Below are positions 5,559 to 64,000 of a DNA stretch of 64,000 nucleotides, in pieces. The DNA is from Dictyostelium discoideum. Its lineage: Eukaryota. Positions within the stretch are counted from its first letter, which is position 1. The number at the start of each line of letters is the position of its first letter. Both the position numbers and the translations under genes were made by a program. The stretch spans positions 2,464,001-2,528,000 of the forward strand of contig CM000153.2 in NCBI GenBank assembly GCA_000004695.1, given 5' to 3'. The notes below the pieces were generated by a model that saw only the letters and a program-made list of their open reading frames with translations, was not told the origin of the DNA and did no database searches.

Positions 5559-7892
<2,334 letters not shown>

Positions 7893-8578: not shown

Positions 8579-9541
8579 ATGAAACATAATTATTATATTT
8601 TATTTTTAATATTAATATCAAGTTTATTTTTATCAAATAAAGTTGTTGAATCATATGGACATCGTAATAATAATAAAGGTGGTGATTCAAAGATTTTATT
8701 AAAAGATGTTCAAGTTTTAACATTAAGATCAGGTGAAATGACAAAAGCCCGAAGATCTTCACCAATCCAACAAATGGAATGTATTGGTGGAACAGCAACA
8801 AAGGAATTAGAACTTTATCCAAAAACAATACAATGTTATAATATGGGATCAAATGGTGTTGATGTTCAATGGAAATGTGAAGCAACATTAGATTCAACAG
8901 TTAGATTAGGTACTATCGATGTAAGTTGTGAAGGTTATTCTTATCCAGAAGATCCTTATATCACTGCTGATAGTTGTGGTGTATTCTATCAATTAGAATA
9001 TACAAATGAACAAAGAAGAAAAGCAGCATTAGCTGAAGAAGAAACATCATGGGTACAAATCATTTTTTGTATTGCATTTATAGGTTTAATTTTATATGCA
9101 GTATTTAATTGGTGTGGTTCACCTCAAGGTGATGATGATAGTAATACTGCTCAAAATAATACTGCAACTGATAATAATTATCCAGGTGGTTTCCCAGGTA
9201 ATAATAATAATAATAACAATAATAATAACAATAGTAATAATAACAACTATGGTGGAAATTATCAAGGTTATCCAAATTTAAATAACAATAATAATGCAGG
9301 TGGTTGTGCTCAACCAAATAATGGCGGTGGTGGTGGTGGTGGTTGGTTTCAACCAGGTTTATGGACAGGTTTAGCTTCTGGTTATCTTTTTGGAAGAATT
9401 CATTCAAATAGGAATCATCATCATTATTATAATCCATCACCTTCATATAATAGACCTAGAAGTTCTTATAGTAGTGGTAGTAGTGGTGGTAGTGGTATAT
9501 CTTCAAGTTCTTCCTCTTATTCTGGTACTTCAAGAAGATAA
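8579..9541 (+). CDS. SARAF/TMEM66-like (DUF1183) single-pass membrane protein with an N/G/S-rich tail
   Basis: 320-aa ORF with a signal peptide. The lumenal domain 'KILLKDVQVLTLRSGEMTKARRSSPIQQMECIGGTA...KTIQCYNMGSNGVDVQWKCEA...IDVSCEGYSYPEDPYITADSCGVFYQLEY' aligns with the conserved SARAF lumenal region, with cysteines in register. A TM helix 'WVQIIFCIAFIGLILYAVFNW' follows. Confidence 0.7.
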   Translation: MKHNYYILFLILISSLFLSNKVVESYGHRNNNKGGDSKILLKDVQVLTLRSGEMTKARRSSPIQQMECIGGTATKELELYPKTIQCYNMGSNGVDVQWKCEATLDSTVRLGTIDVSCEGYSYPEDPYITADSCGVFYQLEYTNEQRRKAALAEEETSWVQIIFCIAFIGLILYAVFNWCGSPQGDDDSNTAQNNTATDNNYPGGFPGNNNNNNNNNNNSNNNNYGGNYQGYPNLNNNNNAGGCAQPNNGGGGGGGWFQPGLWTGLASGYLFGRIHSNRNHHHYYNPSPSYNRPRSSYSSGSSGGSGISSSSSSYSGTSRR

Positions 9542-25742: not shown

Positions 25743-27196
25743 TTAATTATGGTTTTTAGAATTGATTAGATTTAATAATTCAGTGTCCCAATTTAATAGT
25801 TTTGATAGGTTGAGAACTGATTCTTGACAATCACCAATCATTTTGAAATCAAAATTTTTATTATTATTAAAATTGAAACCACCAAAACTATTTTCACCAA
25901 CAATTTGATTATTTATTAATAATCTTGGGATATTTTTAAAATGAGGAAAGAAATGAACCATTGATGCAATTGGTTGAACTTTTAAAGAGGTACCAATCAC
26001 AATTAGACAATCACATCTATTAATATCGTCAAGTATATTTTGATTAAATATTGGTGGTAAAGATTCACCAAAGAAAACAATATCAGGTTTAATTACAGCA
26101 TTATTACATTGAACCACTTTACAACGTGGTACAACACTTTTCAAAGGATCATTATTGAAAATTGAATCTTTAATATATTCTTGAGAATATTCTAAACCAC
26201 AATTTGTACATCTTGAAACTGCAAAAGAACCATGAGCTTCAATTAATTTATCCAATGGTATACCAGCTATTCTTTCAAGTGTGTCAGCATTTTGTGCATA
26301 ATTCCTTAACAGTAATCCTTTATCTGATAAAAGTTTAATAAAATAATGAACTGGTGTACATTTAAATTTACCCGATGGGTAGAGGTCTTTTGAAAGTTGA
26401 TAAAATGGTTCAGGATTGAATTTAAAATAATCAATATCAAACACTGCCTCTTTAAATGGTAATTTAAATTTTGAAACATTTTCATTATTATATAAACCAG
26501 TTTCAACTGATCTAAAATCTGGTATACCACTCGCAACTGAAATTCCAGCTCCTGTCAATACAATAATATTCTTACATTTATCATTTTTAATTAATTTTAT
26601 AAATTCTTTAATTTTATTATTTTCAATTTCAATTTCATTTTCAATTTTAATTTCATTTTTAATGATATTACTATTCTTTATAATATCTTTAATTGAATTA
26701 TCAATTGAGTCGAAATTTTTATTATATTTTAAATTTCTTTGATCATAATAAATGAATAATTTCATTACTTTGAATAAATTTTCAATATCTTTTAATTTTT
26801 TATTTATTAAATCACTATTTTTGGTGCATTTTTCAATCATTGTTGATTCTTTAATTAATTCATTACAATCATTACACCATAATGTTTTATCATCACCATG
26901 AAATATTTTAAAAATTGAATGATTGGAATGTAATTTACAATCTTCCATACAAACAACAATTCCACATTCTAAACAAATTAAAATATTATCTTGACTTGAA
27001 CATTTATAACAATTTGGTATTGTTACTTTTTTTTTTTTTTTTTTTTTTTTTGTTAATTAACAAAAATTTTATTGATTTTTAAATTAAAATATTAATAATA
27101 TAACTTACTATTTTCATTATCATATAATTGAATATCAATTGATTCATAATTTATATTACAATTTTCAATATGTACACATTGTGTTTGTTTTGACAT
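25743..27196 (-). CDS. Sir2-family NAD-dependent protein deacetylase (sirtuin) with an N-terminal UBP-type zinc finger, 2 exons
   Basis: Exon 1 is 27196-27109 (MSKQTQCVHIENCNINYESIDIQLYDNEN, donor GTAAGT). Exon 2 is ~27025-25743. It opens with 'ITIPNCYKCSSQDNILICLECGIVVCMEDCKLHSNHSIFKIFHGDDKTLWCNDC', a zf-UBP pattern (C..C...CL.CG..C...H...H...W.C..C). The sirtuin core follows: 'GAGISVASGIPDFRS', 'HGSFAVSRCTNCGLEY' and the Zn-ribbon cysteines. Confidence 0.8.
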
Positions 27197-29583: not shown

Positions 29584-31453
29584 ATGAGTCGTAAAGAAAA
29601 TTTAAATAGAAGTAGTAGTAGTAATAGTATAGAATTTAATAGAGATAGAGATAGAGATAGTAGTAATATCAGTAATAGTAGTAATATAAATTGTAATAAT
29701 AGTAGTCAAACTCCACCTATTCCACAACATAATAGTTTAAGTGGTAGGTCAAAGCATTCGTCACCAATACATAGTTTAAAGAAAAAAGGTTCATTAGTTA
29801 GACAAGGTATTGAAGATTTATTTAGTTCACTTAGTGTGGATACACATTCAAGTAGTAATAGTAATAATAATAGTAGTAGTAATAATAATAATAATAATAA
29901 TAACCATAATATTAATAGTTCATCGGAATCATCAACTCCTACAACACCAAGATCATCTTTTACACCTCAAGTTACAATGAATAGTAATCAAAGTAGTGGT
30001 AATAATTCACCTCAGTTATCAAGTAGATCTAGTTCACAATCAACTTTAATACCCTCAAATGAACCAACTGTATGTAGTAAATTAATAACCCACCCCACTT
30101 TTATAATTCTCCATATATTTATTTCCTATTACCATATAATTAACTAACAAATAAAATTTATTATTGTTATTTTTATTATCACTAAAAGAAATCATTGGCA
30201 AAATTTTTTTTATTAGCACAACAAGTTGATTATGTTGGTGATTCAAGTTCAACTTTATTACCAGTTGAAAATTTAGGATTATTAAGTATACAATGGAAAA
30301 CATATTTCACAATTGGATTGAATTCAACTACTACTGGATATGACGTTTTAAAATATATATCAATTAAAACTAATAGAGATTTAAAATCATTAACATTGGC
30401 AGATTCAGATGGTAAAATCATTGATAATGATTATATATTAACTCAACAACGTTGTAAAAAATTTGTTGTAGTTGAAGATTTAAATATTGATGATTTAAAA
30501 ATGAAACAATTAAATCATTTACAACAACTACCACCACCATCACAACAACAATTACCACCACCACAATCACACCAACAACAATTATTGCAACAACAATTAC
30601 AACAAAGATTACAAAATCAAAATCAAAATCAAAATAATAATTCAAATTCAAATTCAAATTCAAGCTCAAGTTCATCATGTTCAACACCACAATCTATAGT
30701 ATCACAACAACAAAAATTACATCAAATGCTATTAAATCAACAACAAATTCAATCATCACAAAGTACGACACCAACTAATTCATCACAAAAATCATCACCA
30801 AATAAAGTGACTGATCATCAACATGTTGAGAATTGTAATTTTACATCACCATCACCATCATCACCCTCTTCACCATCATCACCATCGAGTGGTATGATTT
30901 TGGATGGATTCAATTTGGATGGAAATGGTGGTAGACCTACACCATTAATTATAACACCATCTTCTCCATCATCTATGAGAAAGAATCCACCTGCAATTCC
31001 ACCAAGATCACCTTCAAGTTTTAGTGGTGGTAGTCCTTTAAATAATATTTTATTAAATAATACTGAATTAATTTCAGAACCTGTAACAACAACAACAACA
31101 ACAACAACCACCACTTCATCCTCATCATCATTATCAGTAACAACAACAATTTCAAATCCAAATTATACACAAAATTTACCAACAACACCATTATCTAATA
31201 GTAGTAGTAATAATAACAATAATGGATCATTTATAACATTACAAGATACTACAAATAATAAATCAATTATAAATAATAATAGAGAATCACCACCAGAATC
31301 ACCAATGGGTAGTAGAAAATCATCAGGTAGTTCAAATACAACATCATCTACTACTAATACCACTACACCATCATCATCATCATTAACAACATCATCAGGT
31401 AAAGAAAGTAGAGATAGAGATAGTAAAGATAAAGAAAAAGATTTAATTGGTAG

Positions 31454-31511
<58 letters not shown>

Positions 31512-33197
31512 GTTGAAAAAGAAAAAGAGAATTATTGTAAATTTTTAGACGCTGTAAATAGTTTTAATATGGTTGGTAATAATGGTGTATTATTTAATGG
31601 TGAAGCCAATAGGAATATGAAGTTAACCAATGCACAAGAGGAGAAATGTAAGATTTTAGATAATTATTTCAATCATTATTATCAAGAGTTATTTAAATAT
31701 CTTCATCAAAGACATAGAAGAATTAAGACCATTGAGGATTTCACTGTTGAATCTAGAATGGATAGACAGGGTGCAGAACAATGGATGAAGAAACAATTTG
31801 AAAAGGAGACTAATTTCCTTAGGAATAAAAGAGCCGGTATGAAATTAAAAGAATTTAAAATACTAACTCAAATTGGTAAAGGCGGGTTTGGTCAAGTGTT
31901 TTTAGCACAGAAAAAAGATACCGGTGATATTGTAACATTAAAGAGATTAAAGAAACAGACAGTGGAATGGGCCAATCAAAGAAATCAAGTCTCTCAAGAA
32001 AAGAGTGTAATGCTGGTAGATAATAAATGGATCACCAAATTGTTGTATAGTTTTCAAGATGCAAATTATCTCTACTTGGCTATGGAGTATCATTGTGGTG
32101 GCGATTTTAGAGCATTGTTAAATAATTTAGGTACACTCTCTGAGGATGAGGCCAGATTCTACATGATTGAAATGATAGAGGCAATCTCTTCACTTCACGA
32201 GATGGGTATAGTTCATAGGGATTGCAAGCCTTCCAATTTCGTATTGGACAAGTTGGGTCATATCAAGTTAATCGATTTCGGTCTATCCAAGGAAGGTATT
32301 GAAAAGAGAAATGGTTGGAATAAGGCTACGATGAATGAATTGAGAAAGAGTTGTCTAAGTGCCTCTTTCACTTCGAATACAATGAAAGCAGCCTCTGCCT
32401 ATCTATCAGGTGGCACCAATGTTATGGCATATCGTCGTCCAATTGCACATTCTGCTGTTGGCTCACCGGAATATATGTCACCCGAGATTGTCAATGATCA
32501 AGGCTACGATATGACTTGTGACTATTGGTCGTTGGGTTGTGTTTTCGTCGAGATGCTTTGTGGCTTCAATCCATTCTGTGCAGATACACCAAATGACGTT
32601 TTCATCAATATTCTACGTTGGAAGGAAACTTTGGATTGGCCATTATTCACTCAAGAACTTTCGGTGGAGGCAGCTGATCTACTAAAGAATATGTTGATGG
32701 AGCAACCCCATCGTTTAGGTGGTAAAGGGAAACAAGACTTTAAGAACCATCCTTTCTTTAAAAATCATAATTGGGATGAAATCGTAAATGGTCAAGTGAA
32801 ACCACCATTCGTACCAAAGGTTGAGAGTGATATAGATACCTCTTACTTTGAAGATGCCGTTAATAATGATTCCTCAACTTGGGATATCGATGATAACGAT
32901 TGTGGGGGTTATGGTAGTGGTGGTTATGGTGGTGGTGGTCCTCAAGCTAGAGATCCTTTCAATAATTTAAAAATACCCTTTTTCACCTATAGAAAATCTT
33001 CCGCCCTTAGTTTAAGTATGAGTTCAGAAATTGCTCAAAGTTTAAATTATAACAATGGTAATACTTATTCAAACTATACTAGTAATAATAATAATAATAA
33101 TCTTCATAATAATCAAATTCACGAAAGTGATGATGAAAATTATGATATCAATAATATAAATAATAATAATAATAATAATAATAATTTCATTAACTAA
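29584..33197 (+). CDS. NDR/LATS-family serine/threonine protein kinase (AGC group) with a long S/N/Q/T-rich N-terminal region, 2 exons
   Basis: Exon 1 is 29584-30069 (MSRKENLNRSSSSN...PSNEPT, donor GTATGT). Exon 2 is 30189-33197 (KSLAKFFLLAQQVDYVGDSS...). The kinase domain shows GKGGFGQVFLAQKKDTGDIVTLKRLKK, HRDCKPSNFVLD, DFGLS, and the NDR-type insert between subdomains VII and VIII before GSPEYMSPE. An AGC C-terminal 'FFKNHNWDEI...FVPKVESDIDTSYFED' follows. The track's second ORF begins at TTG, inside exon 2. Confidence 0.85.
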
Positions 33198-37890: not shown

Positions 37891-40732
37891 TTATAAATTA
37901 TTATTAATTTCTTTTAATTTTTTCTCTAATAAAGTTTGAGTTTTACTTAATTTCACTCTTTGTCTGGTAATAAAGAAAGCTGAAACTATTAAAGCAGCAC
38001 CACCAATACCTACACCAATACCAACACCAATTTTCCAACCATTTTCAGATTTTTTATTATCAGTATTTCCATTTTGAGAACCGTCCTGTGAGGTACAACT
38101 ATTGATTGATGGTTCACGAACTACAGCAGTTGAATAAGCAGTTAAATCTAATTCAAAACTAGCACTTTGACAATCGTATGCGTTTACTTTAGTTACCATT
38201 TTATTGAATAAACCAGAAATACCAACTGAATTTGAAGTTACACCACCATTACCACTTTGACCATTTACAATTGCAACTTTTGGAAATCTACCAAAATATT
38301 CAACATTGTAAGTATTTAAAGTAAAGAAACGAGTATCCACTGATGAACCAGTTGGATTACCAAAAATAATTGGAAGATTTTGACATTCTTTTGGATATTG
38401 ATCAAATTCAAATAAAAATTGAGGATTATTAACAGTTAATGAACTTCCAGAATAATAATCTACTCTATATGTTAAACTATTCAATGGGAATGAAATAAAT
38501 TGATCACTTGAACTAATTTGATTTTGTCTAATTGTAACATTTATATTCTTTTGATTGGCTCCATACCATTGATATAAAGTTGTATATTGATCGATTGGAA
38601 TTGATTTCCATTGATCAATTAAAATTTCATTTTGATTTTCAATTATTGAAACTAAATATAATTTCATTGAAGATGTGGTTTTTGCATCATCATTTAATTG
38701 TGGTGTCATTGTTATAGTTGCATTATTTTCACCAAATTCAAATTTTGATACAATGGTAGATAGTGAACAATCTGCACCAGTGAAATTACTATTACAAATA
38801 CACATTCCAACATCACCATCACAATAACCATTACTACCACAATTATTTGGACAAAATGATGGATCCATCATTGTTAATAAATTTGAAATTGCACCATATG
38901 ATAATTTATTAACAGTGACTGAAACATCCAATTGACCAGCTGGTAAAATAAATGGTGTTTTTGGGAATTTACATGTTAAAATTGTATGATTTACTGATTG
39001 AACTGGACAATCGATAGAACCCTGTACCAATACTTGTACCATTGAAGTATCATTCCAAAAATTTGAACCAAAAATGGTAACTATTGATTCAAGTTTTGTT
39101 GGAATTAATTTAGTTGATGTACTTTTAATTAATGGTGGTGAATATAAGAATGTAAAAGCTTGATTTCTATTATCTTGACCACTGACACTAACAACAAATA
39201 TACCACCATCAATACCACTTGGTAAATCACATGTTAAAGTTTGATAAGCATTTATTACTTTTACATTTGTGCATTCAATTTCTGTGCCTTTTTTATTGAT
39301 TAATCTAACATAGTTATTTGAATCAGTGGTGGTTCTAGTTGCAATCCAAAAGTTTGTACCATAAATTGTAGCGGTACCACCAATTGTTGGCACAGGTGTA
39401 ATGGAAGCAATACTTGGTGCATTATATTTAAATGAAATTGAAGATGATGGTGCAGGAGTTACATCATTTAATACATTCAATGTTAAAGTACCTTGACCAT
39501 ATATGAATGGATTACTACATGATATTAAAGTGCCAAATTGTTGAACTTGACAATTCAATGGTACAGCACCATTTACATTCTCCATTGAAATACTAATGAA
39601 AGGAATGAATGCACCTAACATTGTACCTCTGATTTGAATACTAAAATCCAATGAACTAATTGGTGTTGTAATACTTGCAATTGTTGGTGAACAAGTTCCC
39701 ATTGGTCCAAATTTAGCCTGATCATATAAAATTCTAAAACTTGTTGATGTACTTAAGAAAACTGATTTTGGTAAACAATAAAATGATGATGGTAATTCAC
39801 CACCAGCAGCACCTCCGATATTAGTTGAAGTTATATCTAAAAAGTTTAAACCACCAGCTAAAATATCATTTGGCAATGCACCTGTGAATGCTGTATTTGA
39901 AATGAAAAGTTGAGTCAATTTAGAACGTGATCCAAATTCTGATGTAAATGAACCAATTAAATTTGGATTATTTTGTGAATACCAAATTCTTAAATTTGGT
40001 AAATAGAAAAACTCTGGATCTATAGTACCAATAATAGCTAAATTATTAAGTGTAACAGTTTGTAATGAATCCCAACTAACCTCTCCAATTCTTGGCATTG
40101 TCTTATTGGCTCCAAAATTTAATAAAAATAATTGAAGTGTTGTTAATGTTGATGGTAATTTATAAAATACACTAAAACTAATTGAATAACCATTACAATA
40201 TAATAAAAATGTTTGTAAACTTGTTGAATTTTTAAATAATGTTGATTGAAGTGATACTGAACTAATTGGTGCAACTTGTAATTGTAAATAACTTTTTTTT
40301 TTTAAAATAAAAAAAATAAAAAAAATTAGAAATATGAAATAAAAAATATATATATACCACTACTACTACTATTACTTACAATGTTAATAAATTTGGGGTA
40401 AAGATTTCAAATGGAAATCTTGCTTGTGTAGCTGCTGTATCATCGGAATGGTAATAACTATTTAGAATTAAAAAAAAAAAAAAAAAAAAAAAAAATATAT
40501 ATTAATAGATAAAATAAAAAATTAAAATAATAATTAAATAAATATAAAATTTACTTACAAATTTTGAAGAGAAGTTGGTAATAAAGGCATTGTTCCCACA
40601 ACTGGTTGAATATGTAAATATTTTAAAGATACCATTTTGGTCCAATCATTTAGTCCATTATCAGTGGTAATTTTAAAATTGTATGTTGAAATTGATTGAC
40701 TAGAAAAAAAGAAATTATTAGTAACAACGTTT

Positions 40733-40767
<35 letters not shown>

Positions 40768-41211
40768 CTCTTTAAATAATCTTACAATTGTTCTAAAACT
40801 GGATGTTGATAAATTGTAATAGGTACATTTTTAACATCAACATTATGTAAGTATAAAATTTTCAAAGCTGGAAATGCATCAAATACATTATTTAAACCAC
40901 AATCTGATACTGCATCAATATCACTTTTTATTTTTATTTTTATTTTTATTTTTATTTTTATTTTTATTTTTAATTTCATATGAAAAAAAGTTAGTATTTA
41001 TATTTTATTTTGATTATTATGTATAAAAAAATATTTACATTCTATTAATATCACCATTTTCGTCACATTTAATACTGTTTGCTAAAAAGATTGATGTGGA
41101 AGTTGCACCACATTCTAATGATGTCCATTGAAATCCACACTGACTTGAAATAGTATTCAAAGCATTAACTAATAATAATTATTTTTTTTTTTTTTTTTTT
41201 TTTGGCGTTAG

Positions 41212-41263
<52 letters not shown>

Positions 41264-41359
41264 TCTTACTTTGTTGGGTTGTAAATGTGGATGAAGCAAT
41301 TGATATAAAAAGTACCAATAATACATTTATCTTTAAAATAAAAGATGAGAGCTTTCTCA
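37891..41359 (-). CDS. Receptor-like type-I membrane protein: signal peptide, leucine-rich repeats, IPT/TIG-like beta-sandwich repeats, an EGF-like module and a single TM; about 6 exons
   Basis: Exon 1 starts at the ATG ~41359 (MRKLSSFILKINVLLVLFISIASSTFTTQQ, donor GTAAGA). Exon 2 is ~41165-41035 (INALNTISSQCGFQWTSLECGATSTSIFLANSIKCDENGDINR). Exon 3 is ~40925-40790 (...DCGLNNVFDAFPALKILYLHNVDVKNVPITIYQHPVLEQ, donor GTAAGA). Exon 4 is ~40720-40575. Exon 5 is ~40465-40385. The last exon is ~40290-37891 and contains 'CPNNCGSNGYCDGDVGMCICNSNFTGADCS' (EGF-like) and 'IGVGIGVGIGGAALIVSAFFITRQR' (TM). Phase-2 donors of the GTAAGT type were matched across the junctions. Confidence 0.6.
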
Positions 41360-42039
41360 TTTTATTTATTTTTATTTTTATTTTTATTTATTTTATTTGT
41401 ATTTATTTTTTTATTTTTTTTTTTTTTATTTGGTTGTTAATGGATCAAAAAAAAATAAAAATAAAAAAATAAAAATAAAAATATAAAATAAAATTTCGAC
41501 ACCAAAAAAAATCTGCAAAACATTTTAAAAAAAAAAAGAAAAAAAAAAAGATATTTATAATTTCCAAATTAGTAACCATTGAAAAAAAAAATCTTTTTAT
41601 TATTTTTATAATACCTGGTTTTTTAAAAAATATGTGAAGGTTATATTGCCGAAAAAAATCTTTTTTTTTTTTTTGCTAAATTTTATTTTTGGTGGTTGAT
41701 TACTTTTTTTTTTTTTATTATTATAATGGTTTTCATCATGTGATTGCGCAATATTAAATCAACAAAAATGAATAAAAAAAAAAAATTAAAAAAATAAATT
41801 CTCGAAAATTAATACTTTTTTTTTTTTCTCTTTTACTCATCCTTTCACCAAAGAAAGATTGATGATTTTTGAAAAAAAAAAAAAAATAAATGAAATAAAA
41901 TAAAATAATTGAGACATTTATTTTTTTTTTTTTAGATTTTTTAAACCAGTTTTGTTCTATTTTATTCTTTTTTTTATTTTTGGTTTTGGTGTTGCCTTAT
42001 TTTTTTATATTTATTTATTTATTTTAATTTAATTTAATT

Positions 42040-42788
42040 TTATTTCTTTAATTCAAATGAAATTTTACAACCACATGATTTTATTGTATTTGGGTTTGAG
42101 GCAACAACAAAAGAACTTCTCATTAATGCTGTTTCATAATCAATGATTGAACCTTCCATCATTTCTAATGAAATTTTATCTATAATTACTTTAGCCCCAT
42201 TCCTAATAAATAATCTATAAAAAAAAAATAAAAATAAAAAAATAATTGTTAGCATGAATATTATATATATTTTTTTTTTTTTTTTTATAGATTATTTATT
42301 AGGAATGGGGCTAAAGTAAAAAAGTAAACTTACACATCATCATCTTGTAATTTATTTTCAACCTTTATTATATATTGATAACCACTACAACCACCCATAT
42401 CTACCATTACTCTAAGGAAAATATCAGTTGAGTCTGATTTCTTTTGTACACTATTTAATTCCTTAACGCAACTATCTGTTAAAGTTATATTATATTTTGT
42501 GATATTTTCATTAATTTCTTCTGCTTCTTTTGATAGTTGTTGTTGTTCAGTTGATGGTGTTGTTGTAGTTGTTGTAGTTGTTTGTTGATGTATTGGGTTT
42601 GATGTTGTAGTTGTTGTAAAAAATTTAAAATTGAAACTTTGTATATTTTTTATTGGTGTGTTGATATTATTATTATTATGATTATTATTGTTAATAATTG
42701 GTGTTATTATACTATGTGGTTTTGTAATAAAACTCCTTTTAAGGAAATATGGTAATGATGAATTTTTTTTAAAAATTGATCTTATCAT
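42040..42788 (-). CDS. Iron-sulfur cluster assembly protein, IscA/HesB family (mitochondrial type), 2 exons
   Basis: Exon 1 is 42788-~42334 (N-terminal presequence-like region, then ...NITLTDSCVKELN...RVMVDMGGCSGYQYIIKVENKLQDDD, donor GTAAGT, phase 2). Exon 2 is ~42214-42040 (VLFIRNGAKVIIDKISLEMMEGSIIDYETALMRSSFVVASNPNTIKSCGCKISFEL). The GGCSG and CGC motifs are conserved. Confidence 0.8.
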
Positions 42789-43256
42789 TTTTTTTTTTAT
42801 TTTTTTTTTTATTTTTTCTTTGTTTTTTTTTCTTGTTTTTTGTTTTGTGAATGAAAAAAAAGTTTTTTAAATTAATTAATTAAAAAAAAAATTAAAAAAA
42901 CGATGACAGTGCGATGATGTTTTGAAAAAAAAAAAAAAAAAAAAATTTAAAAAAAAATTTAAAAATATAAAATAAATTAATTTTTGGTAGTTATTTTACC
43001 TTTATTTATTTGGTTTTTTTTTTTTTTTTTTTTTATTATTATTATTATTCTTACCTAAAATAGAGGTTACTATTATCAAAAAAAAACTATTGTTGTGATT
43101 GTGATTGTGTTGTAATTGGTTGAGATTGTGTTTTGTTGGTTAGGGTGGTTGAGGTGAGATTTATAGTGGTTTTTTTTTTTTTATTATATTTATAAATTGA
43201 AGCTAAAAAAAAAATATTTATACAAAATTATTTTATTAAGCCAAGTAATATATAAA

Positions 43257-43287
<31 letters not shown>

Positions 43288-43681
43288 GAAATTTTAATTT
43301 AATTTAAATATTTAATTTTTTTTAAATTTTATTATTAAATTCATATTAAATAAAATAATTGCCCAAAAAAATAAAAAATAAAAAAAAATAAAAATAAAAT
43401 TAAAAATTAAAAAAATATATATATATAAATTAATTCAAAATTAAAAACCAAATCTTGTATATTCAATAAAAATGATTTTAAAAATACAGTATCTTAATTT
43501 AAAGGTATATTTGTGGTACAAATTAATTTCAAAAAAAAAAAAAAAAAGGGTAAAAAAAAAAAGTTGTAAAAAAAAAGGTAATTATTTAATTAAAAATATT
43601 TTTTTTTTTATTTTTTTAATTTATTCGTCTTTTCCAACACACCTAATTTTTTGTTTTTGACAAAATTTAATCAAAAAGTTT

Positions 43682-43716
<35 letters not shown>

Positions 43717-43766
43717 AAAAAAAAAAAACGAAAGGTAGTTATTACTCAATTGAAAAGAAATACAGA

Positions 43767-44314
43767 ATGGAAAATAATCCAAACCCACACACACCATCTT
43801 CTTCAATACCAACACCACCAACACCACAAACACCAACACCAACACCAACACCACCAATCCAAACAACAACAACACAATCATACACTGTATCATCAATACA
43901 ACCACCACCAGAAATTAATAATGAAACTCATCCAAATTTTACAATGAGAGGAGCATTACCAAATCAAGGAGGTACATATGACTCAAATTCATTTCGTAAT
44001 AATGCCACACCAAAAGTTTATAAACCAGTATTATCAATGGGAAAATTTAGAGTAATTGCAGGTATTTTATGTGCAACTGCATTTTATGTCTCAATCGTAT
44101 CGGAATATGGTGACCATAATAATCAAAAGAAAAATGTAACTTCTGAATTTAGAAAGGCACATGATGAAATTGTATCAAGTTGGTTAGGTTTTGATATTAG
44201 AGAGAAATTTAGAAGTTTAGAAAATAATTATATGGCATTAAGAGATAAAAAGGGTAACACTGTTGATATAGAATCATTAATTCCAAATTCTTCAAAATTA
44301 ACCATTACAAATCC

Positions 44315-44364
<50 letters not shown>

Positions 44365-44648
44365 ATGATACTACAACCACTAATACTACTACTACTGATA
44401 AACCTGAAAAAGTAAATTCATTTTTAAATACTGCAACTGGTGGAAAAATGAATTCAGTTTCATACACTCCAGAATTTGAATCTGGTGCTAAAAAAGTGGA
44501 ATCATTAATAAAAGAAAGTGAAAAAAGATCTTTAAGACTTGAACAATTAGTTGAAAAACAGTTTGAAGAATTACTCGAAAAATCATATGGACCATCTTCT
44601 TCATCATCATCATCCTCCTCCTCCTCTTCCTCTTCCTCTTCAAAATAA
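43767..44648 (+). CDS. Hypothetical single-pass membrane protein with P/T-rich N-terminus, poly-Thr tract and poly-Ser C-terminus
   Basis: 293-aa ORF from an ATG. It has a TM segment FRVIAGILCATAFYVSIVSEY. No recognised domain was found. Confidence 0.5.
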
Positions 44649-44787
44649 AATACAAATAATGTAATATATATAGCCTTTTTTTAAAAAAAAAAAAAAAGAG
44701 TTTTTGTTGTTATTTAAAATTTTTTATACAGGGGTTTATATTTATTTTTATTTTCATTTTCATTTTTACTTGAAATATTTTATTTTT

Positions 44788-45056
44788 TTATTCTTCTTTA
44801 ATGATTTCACCATTTCTAACGATTGTAACTCTACCTTGACCAACTGGTTTTGAATAATCTATAGTTTTATAAGTAACATCCTTACGGTCGATTTTGAATG
44901 GATTTGTGTCAGGGTCCATTTGATCAATATATAATGCTGATGCTGATAATGCAAATAAACCTAAACTAAAAAGAATTCTTTTTTTTGGATCTACATTCTG
45001 TGTGTGGTGTGTGAGTGAGTGTGTGGGTGTGTGGGTGTTTGCATATGCAAGGTGTG

Positions 45057-45091
<35 letters not shown>

Positions 45092-45215
45092 TTTTATTTT
45101 TATAAATAAAAAAAAAAAGTTAATAATTAATTTTTAAGATATCTTAAAAATATGTTAATTAAATTACAATCCACTTTTGCCAAAGAGATATTTTTTTACT
45201 TGGATCCTCAATCAT
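44788..45215 (-). CDS. Small (~85 aa) single-TM protein, 2 exons; family not recognised
   Basis: Exon 1 is 45215-45168 (MIEDPSKKISLWQKWI, donor GTAATT). The intron holds a (GT/CA)n-rich tract and ends ...cacacag. Exon 2 is 44997-44788 (NVDPKKRILFSLGLFALSASALYIDQMDPDTNPFKIDRKDVTYKTIDYSKPVGQGRVTIVRNGEIIKEE*). Confidence 0.45.
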
Positions 45216-45373
45216 GATTTGGAATTTTCTTGTGAAAAAATAAAAAATAAAAAAAATAAAAAAAAAAAAAAAATAAAAAAAAAAAACTGAATTTTTGAAA
45301 AAATAAAAAAAAAAAAAATATAAAAAAAAATAAAAATAAATAAAAATTAAAAAAAAAAAAAAAAAATTATATC

Positions 45374-45417
<44 letters not shown>

Positions 45418-46139
45418 GCAAAACAAAACAAAACACATACGATAGTGGTGATGTGTTGAATAAAAAAATTAACACATTTTTTTTTTTTTATTTTTTGCCA
45501 AACACACACACTTTATCATTGTTAGTTGCTATTATATGCCAATTATAAATTTTTTATTTTTTTTTTATTTTTTTTTTAAAAATTTTTTTTTATTTTTTTT
45601 TTATTTTCAAAAAATTAATAATAATAATAATAAACCTATATACATTGTTATATAAATAAAATAAATAATAATAATAATAGATAAAAGTAAAAATTCCCTT
45701 TCAACACACACACCAACACACATTTAATCTTTTACTATTAGTTATTAAAAAAATAAAAAAAAAAATAAAAAAAATTATACACTATTTTTAATTTATTATT
45801 ATTATTTTTTTTTTTTTTAAATAAAATTTGGCACTCCACTTAAATAATAAATTTTATTTCCCCCTCAATTAATTGTTGTTGTTTTTTTTATAAATTTTTT
45901 TTTTTTTAAATTTTTTTTTGATATTTTAAACTTTTTTTTGTTTATTATTTTAAATAACACTATTTTTTTATAAATAAAAAAACAAAAAAAAAAAAAGTAG
46001 TAAATAAGAAGATTATAAATAAAAGAATTTCAAAATTTTTTTAAAAAAAAAAAAAAAAAAAAACAAAAAAAACCAATATAATTAATTAAATAGCAACTAT
46101 TTTCTTAAAAAAATAAGAGGGTTGAACCAAATATCAAAT

Positions 46140-47782
46140 ATGAATTCGTGGTCATTAGAGAGTGAAACAGATACAGCATCATTTATCAATAGCGAACTAG
46201 CAATTGAAAAACTAAAGGATCTGTTATTAAAAGAAAATCAAATCCAAAAATATAACGATGAAGATGATATTGATGGGGAAGTAGATGATGAAGACGATAA
46301 TGAAGACGATAATGAAGAAGAAGAAGAAGAAGAAGATTTAGATTACGAAGAGGATGATGAAGACGATTATGACGAAGAGGAGGAAGAAGAGGATAAATTA
46401 ACAAATGAAGAAATAGAGGACGAGGGAGAAGAAGATGGGGGAGCAGAAGAAGAAGAAATAGAAGAAGAATTATTACCAATTTCATCACCAACATCATCCA
46501 CAACAACACCAGATATAATACCAGAATCATCATTGGATAAAGAAGATGATAAACAAATTTCAACGGAAAATAACAACAACAATCAAAAGAAACCAATAGA
46601 TTTAAATGAACCTGCTTATTTAGAATATGAATGGGTATTTTACTATGACGATAGTACATTAAAGGGTCAAAATTCAGAGGATTATCAATCATATATTAAA
46701 AATTTAGGTTCTTTTAATACTGTCCAAGTAAGTTTTTTTTTTTTAAAAAAAAAATAGAATTGTTTATTTATAATAGATCTATAGGTTATTTTATATAAAA
46801 TAATATAAAAATAGAATGAATATTAATAATAATAATAATGATGATTATGATTATAGGGGTTTTGGGAATATTGGAATAATATAATTAATTCATCAATGTT
46901 TCCTGATGGCGCAAATTTAAGATTATTTAAACAGGGTATAGCACCAATGTGGGAAGATCCATGCAATGAAAATGGTGGTAAATGGACACTATCATGTTAT
47001 AGAGAACAATCTCATAATATAGCTTTGAAATCATTATTAGCATTGATTGGTGAACAACTAGACCATTCTCATGATATTGTATGTAAAACTAATCATTTTA
47101 AAAACAAACAAACAAACAAACAAACAACAACATACAATATACAATATATATATTTATTATTTTTGATATTAATAAAATTTATTTATTATTCGATTAATTA
47201 CTATTTGGCAGTGTGGGTTTGTATTATCGGTTAGAGCAAGTAGACATGTTATTAGTATTTGGAATAAATCAGGAGATAATAAAGAAATACATGATAGAGT
47301 GAGTGAACAGTTAAAGGAATGTGTATTTGGTAGAGTTTTTAAATATTATCCACATAAACAATTTAGTGGTTCTGTACCACAAAGTCCAATGACACCATCT
47401 GTTAGTTCAAATAATCTTTCAAGTTATAACAATAACAATAATAATAATAGTTCAACACCAATGAAGAGGGAATATTCATCTCCAATGATTTCTTCAAATA
47501 ATGGTGGTCATAACTACAATAATAACAACTACAACAACAACAGATTATCAAATTCATGTAACATTAATAGTGATTCTAAGGAAGATAACAACAGCAATAG
47601 TAATATTGAAAATAATAATAACAATAATCAATGTAATAGTAATAATTTAATCTCATCTTTTGAAAATGAAAATGATAGAAAAGAAACATTTAGACATAAA
47701 AAAAGCCAATCAACTTCTTCAATTTATGGTAGTTCTATAAAATCACCTTTATCAAATAGTAGCAATAATTCAAATTATTTTA

Positions 47783-47827
<45 letters not shown>

Positions 47828-47838
47828 GTAATTGTAAC

Positions 47839-47885
<47 letters not shown>

Positions 47886-49041
47886 ACCATTAAAACTTTC
47901 AAGAGATAATTCATATAATAACAACAATAGCAGTTTCAATAATAATGGAAGATTAAGAAAGGAAAATTCAAAATCAAATATTTTATCTTCAAAAGATAGT
48001 AAGCTTGATGAAAATAGTATAGCAGTTCAACAAAAACAACCACAACCACAACCACAAACACAAACACAAACACAACCACAAACACAACCACAACCACAAC
48101 TACAGCAACAACAAACACCACAAAAGAAATTATATAAGAATGAATCAAGGGATAAAATAAATTTCCATTCAAATTCATCTAAACCGCCATTAAGAGATAG
48201 AAATAATAATCATACATTAAATACTACTCAGTCTGTAAATGAAACAATAACAACATCATCATCGTCATCGTCATCATCATCACCAGCATCATCACCATCA
48301 TTATTACTATCATCATCTACAAATATAAATACACCAATTGAATTAGATGTAATTAAAAAAGAAGAAAAGAAAGAAAAGAAAGGAGAAAAAGAAGAAAAAG
48401 AAGAAAAAGAAGAAAAAGAAGATGATATTATTAAAAAGAATGAAACAGAAGAAGAGAGTATTACAGATGAGATTTTATCAGATTCAAATATTTCAACACC
48501 AATTGGTAGTAATGTAAATGATGATATTGAACGTGGTTGTTTATTCAATTCGAATGAAGAGAAAATTATTGATTCATCACCAAATGAAAATGAAGGCTCT
48601 GATAATTTTACAATTGATGAATTGGTTGAAAATATTTCTGAAGTTTCAGATTTCCACACTGATGAATCTTCATCAGTTTCTTTAAAGAGTGGTTCCAATT
48701 GTAATCAAAAATCAAAGAAAAAGAAATCAAAACAAAATAAATCATCGTCATCATCAAATAATATAAATACAAATAGTAGTGGTAAAGTTTTATCATCACC
48801 ATCATCCTCTTCCAAAGTTAATTCAAAACCATCAACAAATGTTAGAAAGAATTCAAAAGTTAATAGTAAAAATCAAAGTCATACAAAAGGTAAATTCTTA
48901 TCTTATGAAAATGATAATTCACTTGGTGATAAAAATTCCAGCTTTTTCAATTCACCAACATTTAAATTCTGTAAAGAACATTTTGTTGTTATCATAATGA
49001 TTTTTGCTATCGTTTCAATAACAGTTATATTACAAAAATAA
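46140..49041 (+). CDS. eIF4E-family cap-binding protein with a long acidic N-terminal extension and a very long low-complexity C-terminal extension, 3 exons
   Basis: The real ATG is at 46140; the track's start at 46122 is TTG. Exon 1 runs to 46727 (D/E-rich, then ...PAYLEYEWVFYYDD...YQSYIKNLGSFNTVQ, donor GTAAGT). Exon 2 is 46857-47078 (GFWEYWNNIINSSMFPDGANLRLFKQGIAPMWEDPCNENGGKWTLSCYRE...LALIGEQLDHSHDI, donor GTATGT). Exon 3 is 47212-49041 (CGFVLSVRASRHVISIWNKSGDNKEIHDRVSEQLKECVFGRVFKYY..., then ~500 aa of N/S/Q-rich sequence ending in a hydrophobic C-terminus). The eIF4E core motifs are intact. Confidence 0.8.
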
Positions 49042-49042
49042 A

Positions 49043-49111
<69 letters not shown>

Positions 49112-49156
49112 TAGAGAGCCCAACTACTATAATACATAATTAAAAAATAGAAAAAG

Positions 49157-49202
<46 letters not shown>

Positions 49203-49553
49203 AAAAGAAAAAGAAAAAAAAAAAAACAAAACTAACAATGCAAATAAGAATAGTTTAAATAATTAATAGTAATAATCTCTAACCCTTCCAATAGTATATA
49301 TTTTTTTTATCAATAAATAAATAATATTATTTGTTATAAAAAAAAAAAAAAAATGGAGATTTATAAATTCCTAAATTTTATTATTTTTTTTTTTTTCTAA
49401 ACATTTTTTTATTTTTTTTTTTTATTTATTTTTTTTTATCAATGTGTGTTTAAATTTATTTTTAAAAATTTTTTTTTTTATATTTTTTAATTTTTTTTTT
49501 TTAATTTAAAAACAATTATATGAAAATAAAACCCCACATAAACAATTTTTTTC

Positions 49554-49585
<32 letters not shown>

Positions 49586-49603
49586 TATATATATCAAATA
49601 AAA

Positions 49604-50371
49604 ATGTTTAATAAAATAATTTTATTGTTTATATTTTTTCAAATTTTAACAATTCAAATAAAATTAATTCATTCATATGAAATTAGATATTTTGTATTTA
49701 GTGATTCAGAATGTAATTCAACAAATATTAAAATAATGATCAGTGCTACAAAATGTTCAGATTTTGGATTGGTTCAAATTATTAATAATAATAAAATCAT
49801 AATTAATAATAATATTAATTCAATAAATGATTGTTTATCTCCTTCTTCAAAGATCTCAAGTAATTCAATTGAAAAAGAATTAAATAAATGTTATTATGAT
49901 CAGTCAAAGAATGAATCTTACTTGTTTCAATTATCAAAAAATGAACAGCCAATTTCAATTGAATCATTTTGCACTCAATTTAAACAATTAAATGATGATA
50001 GTAATAATAATAAAAATAATAATAAATATTACATGATTTACTCTCATAGAAATGGTAGTTGCCAATCAGTAGGAAATAATAAATTTACACAGTTGTATTG
50101 TATTGGAGATAAAATCCATGAATATAATTGTATTGATAAATGTAAAGATGATTATGATGAAGATATAATTTTAAATGAAAATAATAATTGCCAATTTGTA
50201 AAATCATATTTATCAAATTCAACAAATAATTGTAATAGTAAATCAGTTAAAGTATCAAAATTATTAAACAATAAAATTCAATTAGAAAATTCAAGTAGTA
50301 GTAGTACATTCAATCTCTTTTTATTATTACTTGAAATTATAATTATTATTAATGTGGTTAATTATATTTAA
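49604..50371 (+). CDS. Secreted cysteine-rich protein with a C-terminal hydrophobic tail (GPI-anchor-like); member of a tandem paralog pair
   Basis: 255-aa ORF from an ATG. It has a signal peptide (MFNKIILLFIFFQILTIQIKLIHS) and conserved Cys positions shared with 51068-51796 (SATKCSDFGLVQI vs STSMCSEYGLIQY; FCTQF vs FCNSITF). The hydrophobic C-terminus is LFLLLLEIIIIINVV. Confidence 0.55.
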   Translation: MFNKIILLFIFFQILTIQIKLIHSYEIRYFVFSDSECNSTNIKIMISATKCSDFGLVQIINNNKIIINNNINSINDCLSPSSKISSNSIEKELNKCYYDQSKNESYLFQLSKNEQPISIESFCTQFKQLNDDSNNNKNNNKYYMIYSHRNGSCQSVGNNKFTQLYCIGDKIHEYNCIDKCKDDYDEDIILNENNNCQFVKSYLSNSTNNCNSKSVKVSKLLNNKIQLENSSSSSTFNLFLLLLEIIIIINVVNYI

Positions 50372-62024: not shown

Positions 62025-64000
62025 TTAAATTGGTGAAGGTATACCAATTGTTGATGGTGGAGTTGTTGAAGGAGTTAAAGATGAAGGTGAGGAAGGTGAT
62101 GAAGTAGTAGCGGAAGAAGGACCAGAAGTGATTGGAGCAGTTATTGGGAAATTACTTGAACCAGAAGCAACTGAATGAATATAATCGACATAATTTCTAT
62201 CGGAAGAATAACGATCAACGATTTCTTTGATACGGAATTTTCTGAGTACATAAGGTTTTGAATAATTTGGAGTATTATGACGAACATAACGATAGGCATT
62301 GATAGCGGTTTGACGAACCAACAATGGTAACAATTCCTTATTGACAGCCATACCATGAATTAATGGACCAAATAATGGTACTTTTGATTCTTTACGATAG
62401 ATTTGAATTCTGAATAAACCATTTGGTAGCGGATAAACGATGACCAAAGCATCATTGAATTGAGAGGTGATAGTGGTACTATTGTAATCACGGATATGTT
62501 CGGACCAAATGATGTTTACAATATCATTACCCACATGACGTTTCTTATGAATTTGTTGTGAATCGGTTGGATTGGTTGGCATTAATGTGATATCGTGAAA
62601 GATGGCCTCAACCGATGGAGTTGCATAATATGGAGCATAGACACCAGTTGTCTTTTTACGATCCAAACCACCCATATAGCCTTGATGTTGAGCCAATTCA
62701 ACTGGCCAACCTAAACCATCGACAAATTGACGATAGAGATTTGAAGTGTGAGCATTGGCACCACCTTGACTATTGTATTGTTTGGTTTGGTCATTTCTAA
62801 GGATCTCTTTTTGGTCATCTTGACCTTCGCATGTATAGATGACACCAATCTTTAAGATTTCACGACCAGGAGTGATATCCAATTGAGTTAGAGCACGACT
62901 TAATTTATTTGTTGATTCCAATTGACGTAGAGTGTTGGTATAGATATTAACATCCAAGAAACCTAAATAAGATAAAAGTAAACGACAACTTTGAGAGACA
63001 ATCGATTTTGCTTTATCAGGGATTTGAGCATTCCAAGTGCTACCAATTGGTGGTAATGCGTATTTCTCTTGAGTATTTAATGAATCTTCCCTTTGAATGA
63101 ATGCATTCAATTCATTTTGATTCTTTGTAAAGATATCAACTAGATTTGCTTTCAAACAATTCAATGGTTGATTTAAGAATTTTCCTTGACTTGGTAAACA
63201 TTCTGGATGTTCAACAGAGAGATTCTCCAAGAGTTTATTTAATTTTTCATCCTTTTCAACCGGTTTAACTGTTAAATCATTTGAATATTTATTGATTAAA
63301 TGATAACTATTTTGATTGGAATCTAAAACCATTAGATTACTATTTGTACCCTCCAATAGTGATGGGAGTGGTGATTGTTTAATTTGATTCTCCAAATCAT
63401 AATCACAATCAAAGTTCCAAACATATTTACCGGTTGCGTCACGTATAAATAATCTTGCATAGGAACCTGATCCATTTGGTTTAGGAATTTCAACAACGCT
63501 AATTAATGCATTCTCGTTCAATACACAAAATAATGGTAATGTTGAAATATTAGTTGGTGGTGATGCATTAATTTGTGATGATGATGATTGTTGTTCATCA
63601 TTTTCATCAAATAAAGTTTTATCATCTTCTTCATCAATCATTGAACTAATGAATTCTGCACCTTGTTTTGATGGGAAATTATGAGTGAAATTTAAACAAT
63701 GATTTAATAAAGTTTCACAAGCATCATGTATTACAACGAATTTTGTAGTTTCTTCCTCCTCTTGATTGGTTGAAGTATTTGTTGATTTATCACCACTATC
63801 TCTAAATTTATCATTAATCTTTGAGATAACATTCTTTTTAATTGTTAAATTTTTAGTAACACCTTTAATATGATCCTTTGAATCACCACCGGCATTTAAT
63901 GCATTAGCGGCGGCGGCAGCAGCTTCTTGTTTTAAAATATTTGAAAATGAATTTGAACTCCACATTTCATCTTTTAGACCTAAACCTTCTTCAATACAAC
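62025..64000 (-). CDS. Rap/Ran-GAP domain protein (tuberin/RalGAP/Rap1GAP-like); C-terminal portion only, gene continues beyond the window end
   Basis: The ORF is open to coordinate 64000; the 'M' at 63965 is internal and the frame continues upstream as ...CIEEGLGLKDEMWSS. The Rap-GAP domain reads 'KIGVIYTCEGQDDQKEILRNDQTKQYNSQ...FVDGLGWPVELAQHQGYMGGLDRKKTTGVYAPYYATPSVEAIFHDITLMPTNPTDSQQIHKKRHVGNDIVNIIWSEH' (compare 'IGVLYVxEGQ...GGLD...TG...IFHVxTxMPT...KKRHIGNDxVxIVF'). An S/P/T-rich C-terminus follows. Confidence 0.75.
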   Translation of the reverse strand, partial: CIEEGLGLKDEMWSSNSFSNILKQEAAAAAANALNAGGDSKDHIKGVTKNLTIKKNVISKINDKFRDSGDKSTNTSTNQEEEETTKFVVIHDACETLLNHCLNFTHNFPSKQGAEFISSMIDEEDDKTLFDENDEQQSSSSQINASPPTNISTLPLFCVLNENALISVVEIPKPNGSGSYARLFIRDATGKYVWNFDCDYDLENQIKQSPLPSLLEGTNSNLMVLDSNQNSYHLINKYSNDLTVKPVEKDEKLNKLLENLSVEHPECLPSQGKFLNQPLNCLKANLVDIFTKNQNELNAFIQREDSLNTQEKYALPPIGSTWNAQIPDKAKSIVSQSCRLLLSYLGFLDVNIYTNTLRQLESTNKLSRALTQLDITPGREILKIGVIYTCEGQDDQKEILRNDQTKQYNSQGGANAHTSNLYRQFVDGLGWPVELAQHQGYMGGLDRKKTTGVYAPYYATPSVEAIFHDITLMPTNPTDSQQIHKKRHVGNDIVNIIWSEHIRDYNSTTITSQFNDALVIVYPLPNGLFRIQIYRKESKVPLFGPLIHGMAVNKELLPLLVRQTAINAYRYVRHNTPNYSKPYVLRKFRIKEIVDRYSSDRNYVDYIHSVASGSSNFPITAPITSGPSSATTSSPSSPSSLTPSTTPPSTIGIPSPI

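Follow-up and report, generated by a model that had tools for sequence, protein, structure and literature searches.

The subject of this work is a gene for a protein of the eIF4E (cap-binding) family, located on the forward (+) strand of a 64,000-nt stretch of Dictyostelium discoideum DNA (hereafter the window, to whose positions all coordinates refer). The predicted product carries an acidic extension on the N-terminal side of the eIF4E domain, and on the C-terminal side a long spacer leading to a putative membrane anchor at the extreme C-terminus. The gene, which is real and intact, consists of three exons separated by two canonical introns (Table 1), and its exons add up to 2640 nt, i.e. 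879 codons plus TAA. The initial annotation, made from the sequence alone, had described a protein of ~960 amino acids (aa) with a C-terminal extension of ~500 aa. The three-exon model changes the first figure to 879 and the second to ~560-570.

The window is very AT-rich (GC 14-33%), and the coding sequence is rich in Asn, Ser and Gln runs. The exons have a GC content of 25-32%, the flanks of 10-13% and the introns of 11% and 16.5%; within the coding sequence GC by codon position is 0.355/0.324/0.141. Since 7.9% of all + strand codons in the window are stops, the probability that the 609-codon open frame of exon 3 arose by chance is ~1e-22. The other two frames of this exon contain 24 and 144 stops. 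Reading through intron 1 leads to a stop codon at 46755-46757, and read-through of intron 2 shifts the frame because its length is not a multiple of three. Splicing of intron 2 restores colinearity with the orthologues (...SHDICGFVLSVR...), and in the alignment exon 1 is colinear with the orthologous proteins P0020, P0021 and P0023 described below. On the 5' side an in-frame stop is located at 46083 and the first ATG at 46140; the first start-like codon between them is the TTG at 46122, upstream of the true start, where the open reading frame (ORF) track had placed the beginning of the gene. This start had been suspected to be wrong, and the orthologues, which begin alike (MNSW.., MNW.., MNSLSW..; MN(S)W in short), bear out the suspicion. 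Since there is no in-frame Met between M1 and the eIF4E domain, the acidic N-terminus cannot be skipped. The acidic region is joined to the first strands of the domain within exon 1, and the last third of the domain to the C-terminal extension within exon 3. The Pfam match agrees with the earlier placement of the core across the end of exon 1, exon 2 and the start of exon 3.

Table 1. Features of the eIF4E gene and other genes identified in the window
Feature	Position	Strand	Description
Exon 1	46140-46727	+	aa 1-196; start codon, acidic N-terminal extension, first eIF4E-domain strands
Intron 1	46728-46856	+	129 nt, phase 0, GC 10.9%, GTAAGT...TAG; GTAAGT donor at 46728
Exon 2	46857-47078	+	aa 197-270; W199 (equivalent of W73), GIAPMWED, NENGGKW
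Intron 2	47079-47211	+	133 nt, phase 0, GC 16.5%, GTATGT...CAG
Exon 3	47212-49041	+	aa 271-879 and TAA; last third of the domain, whole C-terminal extension and predicted anchor in a single open frame
Acidic N-terminal extension	46140-46604	+	aa 1-155; E 26%, D 17%, net charge -59
eIF4E domain	46620-47322	+	aa 161-307; Pfam PF01652 (IF4E), both introns inside
Y182 codon	46683-46685	+	equivalent of human W56
GIAPMWED	46935-46958	+	exon 2
NENGGKW	46965-46985	+	exon 2
KREYSSP block	47464-47484	+	aa 355-361; K-R-E-x-S-S-P invariant in the dictyostelid alignment
RKETFRHKKSQSTSS	47677-47721	+	aa 426-440; contains H-[KR]-[KR]-[ST]-x-S (H432-S437, 47695-47712)
Acidic SE(V/I)SD..TDESS block, then basic KSKKKKSK	48616-48732	+	aa 739-777; four-way alignment
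Predicted tail anchor	48970-49038	+	CKEH (aa 857-860), hydrophobic helix, QK tail
Hydrophobic helix FVVIIMIFAIVSITVIL	48982-49032	+	aa 861-877, 17 residues, two residues before the stop
DDB_G0284773	3019-4599		exact look-up
Family-10 fucosyltransferase	5559-7892		Pfam
DUF1183 protein	8579-9541		exact look-up
Sir2-family deacetylase	25743-26948		Pfam
Protein kinase with long N-terminal region	30195-33197		Pfam
ISCA2-like Fe-S assembly gene	42330-42788	-	counterpart in D. purpureum contig L003 with Pfam Fe-S_biosyn, 77% identity
Rap/Ran-GAP	62025-63965		Pfam

Membership of the eIF4E family is solid. The Pfam scan proposed with the initial annotation gave a match to PF01652 (E = 8.6e-43, 146.2 bits against a cut-off of 28.7) that covered profile positions 2-147 of 158. 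Among PDB sequences the core matched plant eIF4E (1e-32), human 4EHP (3e-29; 5nvk, E = 2.7e-29), human and Drosophila eIF4E (1e-25 to 1e-27) and eIF4E3 (4b6u, 4.8e-17). An alignment of 27 family sequences served to build the AlphaFold2 (AF2) model of the core, which had a predicted local distance difference test score (pLDDT) of 90.9 and displayed the cupped-hand alpha/beta fold. Comparison by Foldseek with Drosophila, wheat and human eIF4E and with 4EHP yielded template-modelling (TM) scores of 0.88-0.92 (0.92 for 2jgb) and root-mean-square deviations of ~2 A.

Functional residues were mapped by alignment to wheat and melon eIF4E and to 144 family cores (human numbering, the D. discoideum residue in brackets). 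The retained cap and partner residues are W43 (W165), W73 (W199), W102/E103 (W228/E229), R112/W113 (K238/W239), R157 (R278) and W166 (W287); V69 (V195), L131 (L253) and L135 (L257) are also present. W46 (Y168), W130 (A252), E132 (K254) and K159/K162 (S280/V283) are replaced, as is the cap-stacking W56, which is Trp in wheat eIF4E and Tyr (Y182) here. The predicted cap pocket is aromatic and complete, though one of the stacking residues is Tyr, as it is in 4EHP, and the core of the predicted dorsal partner-binding surface is retained. The W-rich core had been described as intact. This was found to be true of the fold, GIAPMWED and NENGGKW, but not of W56 and W46 (both Tyr) or W130 (Ala). Likewise, when conservation of the key tryptophans was checked as had been advised, the equivalents of W43, W73, W102, W113 and W166 were in place, whereas the cap-stacking W56 was Tyr.

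The N-terminal extension, correctly recognized at the outset as acidic and ~150 aa long, comprises ~155-160 residues, 43% of which are Asp or Glu (net charge -59). Dictyostelid orthologues have D/E-rich N-termini of 147-182 aa, and more distant members of the clade described below N-termini of 4-60 aa. The C-terminal extension is rich in Asn, Ser, Gln and Lys and partly made up of triplet and hexamer repeats. Its ~540-residue spacer between the fold and the anchor is compositionally biased and predicted to be disordered, and in the full-length AF2 model (four sequences) the linker had no structure except a short KE-rich helix.

The hydrophobic C-terminus mentioned in the initial annotation could be narrowed down to aa 861-877, with a mean Kyte-Doolittle hydropathy of 3.26. 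This is the sole window of the protein above 1.0; the next-best 19-residue window (0.93) lies inside the eIF4E fold. No signal peptide was recognizable at the N-terminus, which is acidic, and no second membrane segment in the hydropathy profile. In the full-length AF2 model, which was used for the terminal helix alone, this helix (861-878) has the highest pLDDT. The predicted topology, a single C-terminal segment and no signal peptide, is that of a tail-anchored membrane protein. The position and the character of the anchor recur in P0020, P0021, P0023, P0025, P0026, P0027 and P0030, among others.

Relatives were collected by an exhaustive HMMER scan of 1.84 billion representative proteins with the core, which returned 4609 matches. 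The top four are 743-1215 aa long, have the domain at aa 140-355 and are 59-78% identical in the core: P0020 of D. purpureum (808 aa, 78%), P0021 of Polysphondylium violaceum (748 aa, 69%), P0022, listed under a eukprot gene id (1215 aa, 62%), and P0023 of Acytostelium subglobosum (743 aa, 59%). P0020, P0021 and P0023 are NCBI/UniRef entries annotated 'hypothetical protein', and their C-termini consist of C(K/R)(E/D)H, 17 hydrophobic residues and ILQxx. P0022 is without the expected tail anchor at its end; its gene model seems to run on into a multi-pass membrane protein encoded downstream. Trinity transcripts of Cavostelium, Protostelium and Mastigella and one MMETSP transcript contain core, linker and C-terminal transmembrane domain (TMD), and thus provide transcript-level evidence, in orthologues, that these parts are encoded by one mRNA. 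Mastigella is a GC-rich relative, and the hydrophobic end is present there as well. The original assumption of one gene for the core exons and the long 3' ORF is borne out by the shared exons and by the orthologue transcripts. Gene order around the eIF4E gene (window positions 37891-50371) is conserved in D. purpureum (GL871297, our contig L003): a TIG-domain gene, the ISCA2-like Fe-S gene and a small gene precede it, and a small homologous gene follows. The D. purpureum orthologue is likewise interrupted by an intron where intron 1 lies. A word-index protein search with the C-terminal 240 aa gave no match, but its negatives carry no weight because it missed known orthologues, among them P0020 despite a shared 21-residue exact stretch. 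Used with the core, this type of search found the exon-2 ORF, in a prokaryote-style version, and distant eIF4Es, and used with the clade profile, short class I-like proteins.

For classification, 144 near-complete cores from the HMMER matches were aligned and a neighbour-joining (NJ) tree was calculated from 156 columns and rooted on a class II sequence. A TMD was scored where a 17-residue window C-terminal of the eIF4E domain reached a hydropathy of at least 2.0. All 41 TMD-bearing proteins fell into one clade of 60; the other 84 proteins, which are class I- or II-like, were without a TMD (Fisher test, 1e-21). In 36 of the 41 the TMD lies within 20 residues of the C-terminus; these 36 anchors have a median length of 20, a mean hydropathy of 2.47, a mean tail charge of 0.0 and a mean upstream charge of +1.0. 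Every clade member has W43 and W73 (60/60), and the sequence following W73 is typically FW(R)YWN. The clade keeps W102 in 50/60, E103 in 51/60 and W166 in 58/60 members, and the W56 position is occupied by Y in 36, F in 11 and W in 5. All named members are Amoebozoa (Dictyostelia, Cavostelium, Protostelium, Mastigella). The predicted domain-spacer-anchor layout defines a distinct eIF4E clade, a whole family and not a single oddity. Of the guesses made at the start, 'perhaps membrane-tethered' has become the best supported, the predicted terminal helix being conserved from Dictyostelia to Archamoebae and confined to one eIF4E clade.

Four proteins (P0068, P0137, P0084 and P0098) form a divergent subgroup of the anchored clade with an extra hydrophobic segment at the N-terminus (e.g. 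MISIKNIFLLILSSVLTSF), which suggests a signal-anchor or a different topology. The seemingly anchored class I eIF4E of Peronospora farinosa (P0221) was rejected as the probable product of an unspliced intron; its sister P0230 is without the 24-residue insert.

The linker contains conserved short motifs. The dictyostelid consensus of aa 426-440 is (R)K(E/D)xF(K/R)HKKSQSTSS, of which KKSQST is invariant in the four-way alignment; in the block at aa 739-777 of the same alignment D739, S749, D754, S757 and K772-774 are invariant. The 60 C-terminal extensions of the clade contain 36 copies of the pattern H-[KR]-[KR]-[ST]-x-[ST], whereas 0.29 occurrences were expected from residue shuffles of these extensions, a ~120-fold excess; the maximum in 500 shuffles was 3. 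Its last position is Ser in 36/36. Apart from HKKSQS, variants such as HKRSAS, HRKSTS, HKKSSS and HRRSFS are found across the clade; the motif is present in one to five copies per protein in the linkers (P0025-P0045). Extensions of eIF4Es outside the clade contained zero copies even of the broader pattern [HRK][RK][RK][ST]x[ST]. The NDR/LATS kinase consensus, HxR/KxxS/T, requires His at -5, and phosphorylation can create 14-3-3 sites (PMC4320110). The D. discoideum sequence H432-K-K434-S-Q-S437 fits this consensus: counted from its final Ser, position -5 is His and position -3 is basic. An intramolecular 4E-binding motif (YxxxxL-phi) was also considered for the extensions and rejected; it is absent from the D. 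discoideum protein and not conserved in the orthologues.

Taken together, we think it fairly likely that the protein is a tail-anchored, probably endoplasmic reticulum (ER)-bound cap-binding tether serving local translational control. Because there is no signal peptide and the transmembrane helix is terminal, membrane insertion would be post-translational, presumably by a GET/TRC40-type route. The cap-binding domain would then face the cytosol on a long flexible leash. The ER or the nuclear envelope is favoured over mitochondria since the helix is very hydrophobic and its two-residue tail near-neutral. The 7-methylguanosine (m7G) cap would be held between Y182 and W228, with the participation of E229, R278 and W287, and a subset of capped mRNAs could in this way be kept at the membrane surface, where the dorsal residues V195, W199, L253 and L257 may recruit a partner with a 4E-binding motif. 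A kinase of the NDR/LATS type could phosphorylate the conserved spacer sequence H-K-K-S-Q-S, to which 14-3-3 might perhaps bind. Since W56 is replaced by Tyr as in 4EHP, and E132, K159 and K162 have no conserved equivalents, we slightly prefer a local regulator, holding mRNAs or repressing them, to a general initiation factor; activation of local initiation is almost equally likely. A more far-reaching proposal, which we put forward tentatively and regard as rather doubtful, is that a conserved but hitherto unrecognised clade of ER tail-anchored eIF4Es enables amoebae, and perhaps other protists, to station mRNAs directly on endomembranes in a cap-dependent manner independent of the signal recognition particle, with capture or release switched by NDR/LATS-type phosphorylation of the linker sequence H-K-K-S-x-S and by 14-3-3 binding.

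The same tail-anchored protein might instead reside in the mitochondrial outer membrane, or on another organelle, and serve local translation of mRNAs for mitochondrial proteins. Tail anchors of the mitochondrial outer membrane are short and flanked by basic residues, and mRNA tethering at this membrane is known elsewhere (AKAP1/MDI, SYNJ2BP). The 17-residue anchor is indeed short, with K858 and H860 upstream and K879 downstream, and the mean upstream charge of the clade anchors is +1.0. However, the hydropathy is very high, both here (3.26) and as a clade average (2.47), and the tail charge is at most +1, with a clade mean of 0.0. Judged by surveys calibrated in mammals and yeast, such values would point to the ER, and we regard a mitochondrial location as unlikely, although it deserves to be kept in mind.

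A scaffold in which the eIF4E fold has ceased to bind the cap, and which docks proteins with 4E-binding motifs at the membrane through its dorsal surface, is improbable in our estimate. Such a loss could be read from Tyr at W56, from the replacement of W46 and W130, from the equivalents of K159, K162 and E132, which are not conserved, and from the absence of W102 in 10/60 and E103 in 9/60 clade members. Yet the residues predicted to contact m7G are all aromatic or conserved (Y182, W228, E229, W287, R278), and 4EHP binds the cap with Tyr at the W56 position. Retention of W102 in 50/60 and W166 in 58/60 members would be surprising if cap binding were not under selection.

We give little credit to an ordinary soluble paralogue whose extensions are neutral low-complexity expansions and whose hydrophobic end is a chance product of AT-rich codons. 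Much of the extension consists of poly-N, poly-S and PQ/TQ repeats, which are typical of the D. discoideum genome, and the acidic N-terminus is restricted to dictyostelids, but the hydrophobic end has kept its position, length and flanks in four dictyostelids, is present in GC-rich relatives (e.g. Mastigella) and is absent from 84/84 eIF4Es outside the clade, and the short motifs of the linker are conserved and statistically over-represented. A gene-model artefact, i.e. two separate genes for the eIF4E exons and the long 3' ORF, can practically be dismissed: although the exact 879-aa sequence is without counterpart in the protein collection, a failed look-up means little where word-index searches missed known orthologues, the last 37 residues of the Pfam match share one exon and one frame with the entire extension, no in-frame Met lies between M1 and the domain, and the layout recurs in orthologues, both annotated and transcript-derived.

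Several points weigh against an anchored cap-binding tether at the ER. The transmembrane call is based on hydropathy and on a full-length AF2 model of low confidence (mean pLDDT 37), and the choice between ER and mitochondria on a rule of thumb derived from mammalian and yeast tail-anchored proteins. The split separating the TMD clade has a bootstrap value of 61/100, so monophyly of the anchored clade is likely but not secure. In 19 of the 60 clade members no anchor was detectable; several of these are fragments, and P0112 (1.98) and P0029 (1.80) are just below the threshold at the extreme C-terminus. The end of P0024 (SYTHLTLPTT) resembles what we take to be translated sequencing-adaptor sequence. 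The only matching public contig, L001, is unspliced genomic DNA. The residues Y182 (W56), S280/V283 (K159/K162) and K254 (E132) could weaken binding of the cap or of eIF4G, and the putative assignment of the linker to NDR/LATS kinases is one of motif matching alone.

The other genes recognized in the window are listed in Table 1; no tRNA gene was found in its 64 kb. ISCA2 is DDB_G0284809 (PMC7554988). On the basis of 77% identity to the Fe-S_biosyn counterpart and of fitting locus numbering, the Fe-S gene on the - strand is most likely this gene. The eIF4E gene, judged from the numbering of its neighbours alone, is probably DDB_G0284813. Two antisense ORFs within it (46186-46692 and 48228-48698, - strand, 168 and 156 aa) were discarded as Leu/Ser-rich shadows of GAA/AAG coding repeats. 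An (AAT)25 microsatellite runs from the stop codon on (49037-49111), with a ~90-nt A-rich run at 49142-49231; these repeats probably break short-read assemblies of the gene.

eIF4E is among the most studied translation factors, and to our knowledge all characterised members of the family are soluble. In the searchable literature no description of an anchored or transmembrane eIF4E was found, an absence that is no proof of novelty. In the main review of protist eIF4Es the words 'transmembrane' and 'hydrophobic' do not occur. Localised translation at membranes is usually put down to nascent-chain targeting or to RNA-binding proteins that read coding or 3' untranslated region elements. A tail-anchored cap-binding domain, if confirmed, would localise mRNAs by another and very direct route. 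Its predicted layout is conserved from Dictyostelium to Archamoebae, the linker carries a kinase-type motif, and D. discoideum is a model organism amenable to genetics. The existing schemes of eIF4E classification (classes I/II/III, protist clades 1-3) miss the domain-linker-anchor architecture. What had escaped the initial annotation were Tyr at W56, the length of 879 aa, the conservation of motifs in the linker and the family-wide occurrence.

With class I (human eIF4E1, wheat eIF4E) the D. discoideum protein has in common the fold (TM ~0.9), 32-38% identity and the equivalents of W43, W73, W102, E103, W113, R157 and W166 and of the dorsal V69, L131 and L135. In contrast to the ~210-230 aa of class I it has 879 aa, with an acidic N-terminus, a ~560-aa linker and a predicted C-terminal anchor; unlike class I it has Tyr at W56 and W46 and Ala at W130, and in the NJ tree it does not group with class I. 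Of the two Trp residues that characterize class I (W43 and W56) it has the first (W165) but not the second (Y182). Tyr at W56 is shared with class II (4EHP, eIF4E2), to which similarity is as high as to class I, and a role as mRNA-selective regulator rather than general factor may also be common to the two proteins. However, 4EHP is soluble and ~245 aa long. In class II W43 is replaced by Y/F/L and W56 by Y/F, whereas W43 is Trp in the D. discoideum protein (W165) and in 60/60 clade members. A dictyostelid contig (L002, 525-1886; Logan SRR33188695) encodes a separate class II-like paralogue, interrupted by one intron, in which W43 and W56 are both replaced by Tyr and the N/S/P-rich tail of ~200 aa has no anchor, indicating that dictyostelids carry several eIF4E types.

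In class III, reportedly defined by Joshi et al. and described as chordate-centred, W43 is kept and W56 is replaced by C/Y (restated in PMC3388326). W165 and Y182 conform to this pattern, as far as the residue rule alone is concerned. In the PDB search eIF4E3 (4b6u) ranked far below class I and class II structures, so the likeness to class III is probably a convergence or coincidence at one position; the NJ tree was without a bona fide eIF4E3, and eIF4E3 has neither linker nor anchor. Among the extended eIF4Es of protists, trypanosomatid EIF4E3 and EIF4E4 have N-terminal extensions of more than 150 aa (PMC3388326, PMC5862402). These proteins are soluble and extended at the N-terminus, whereas the D. 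discoideum protein is extended at both ends and has a predicted C-terminal anchor. With its departure from the class I and class II residue patterns, its extended layout and its position in the anchored clade, the protein can be regarded as a specialised, non-canonical member of the eIF4E family, as had been proposed.

Membrane tethers of mRNA comprise p180/RRBP1 and AEG-1 at the ER and AKAP1/MDI and the tail-anchored SYNJ2BP at mitochondria. None of these proteins is known to read the 5' cap or to have an eIF4E fold, and SYNJ2BP is the one that shares the tail anchor predicted here. The job proposed for the D. discoideum protein would be the same as theirs, to hold mRNA at the surface of an organelle, a likeness of mechanism and not of homology.

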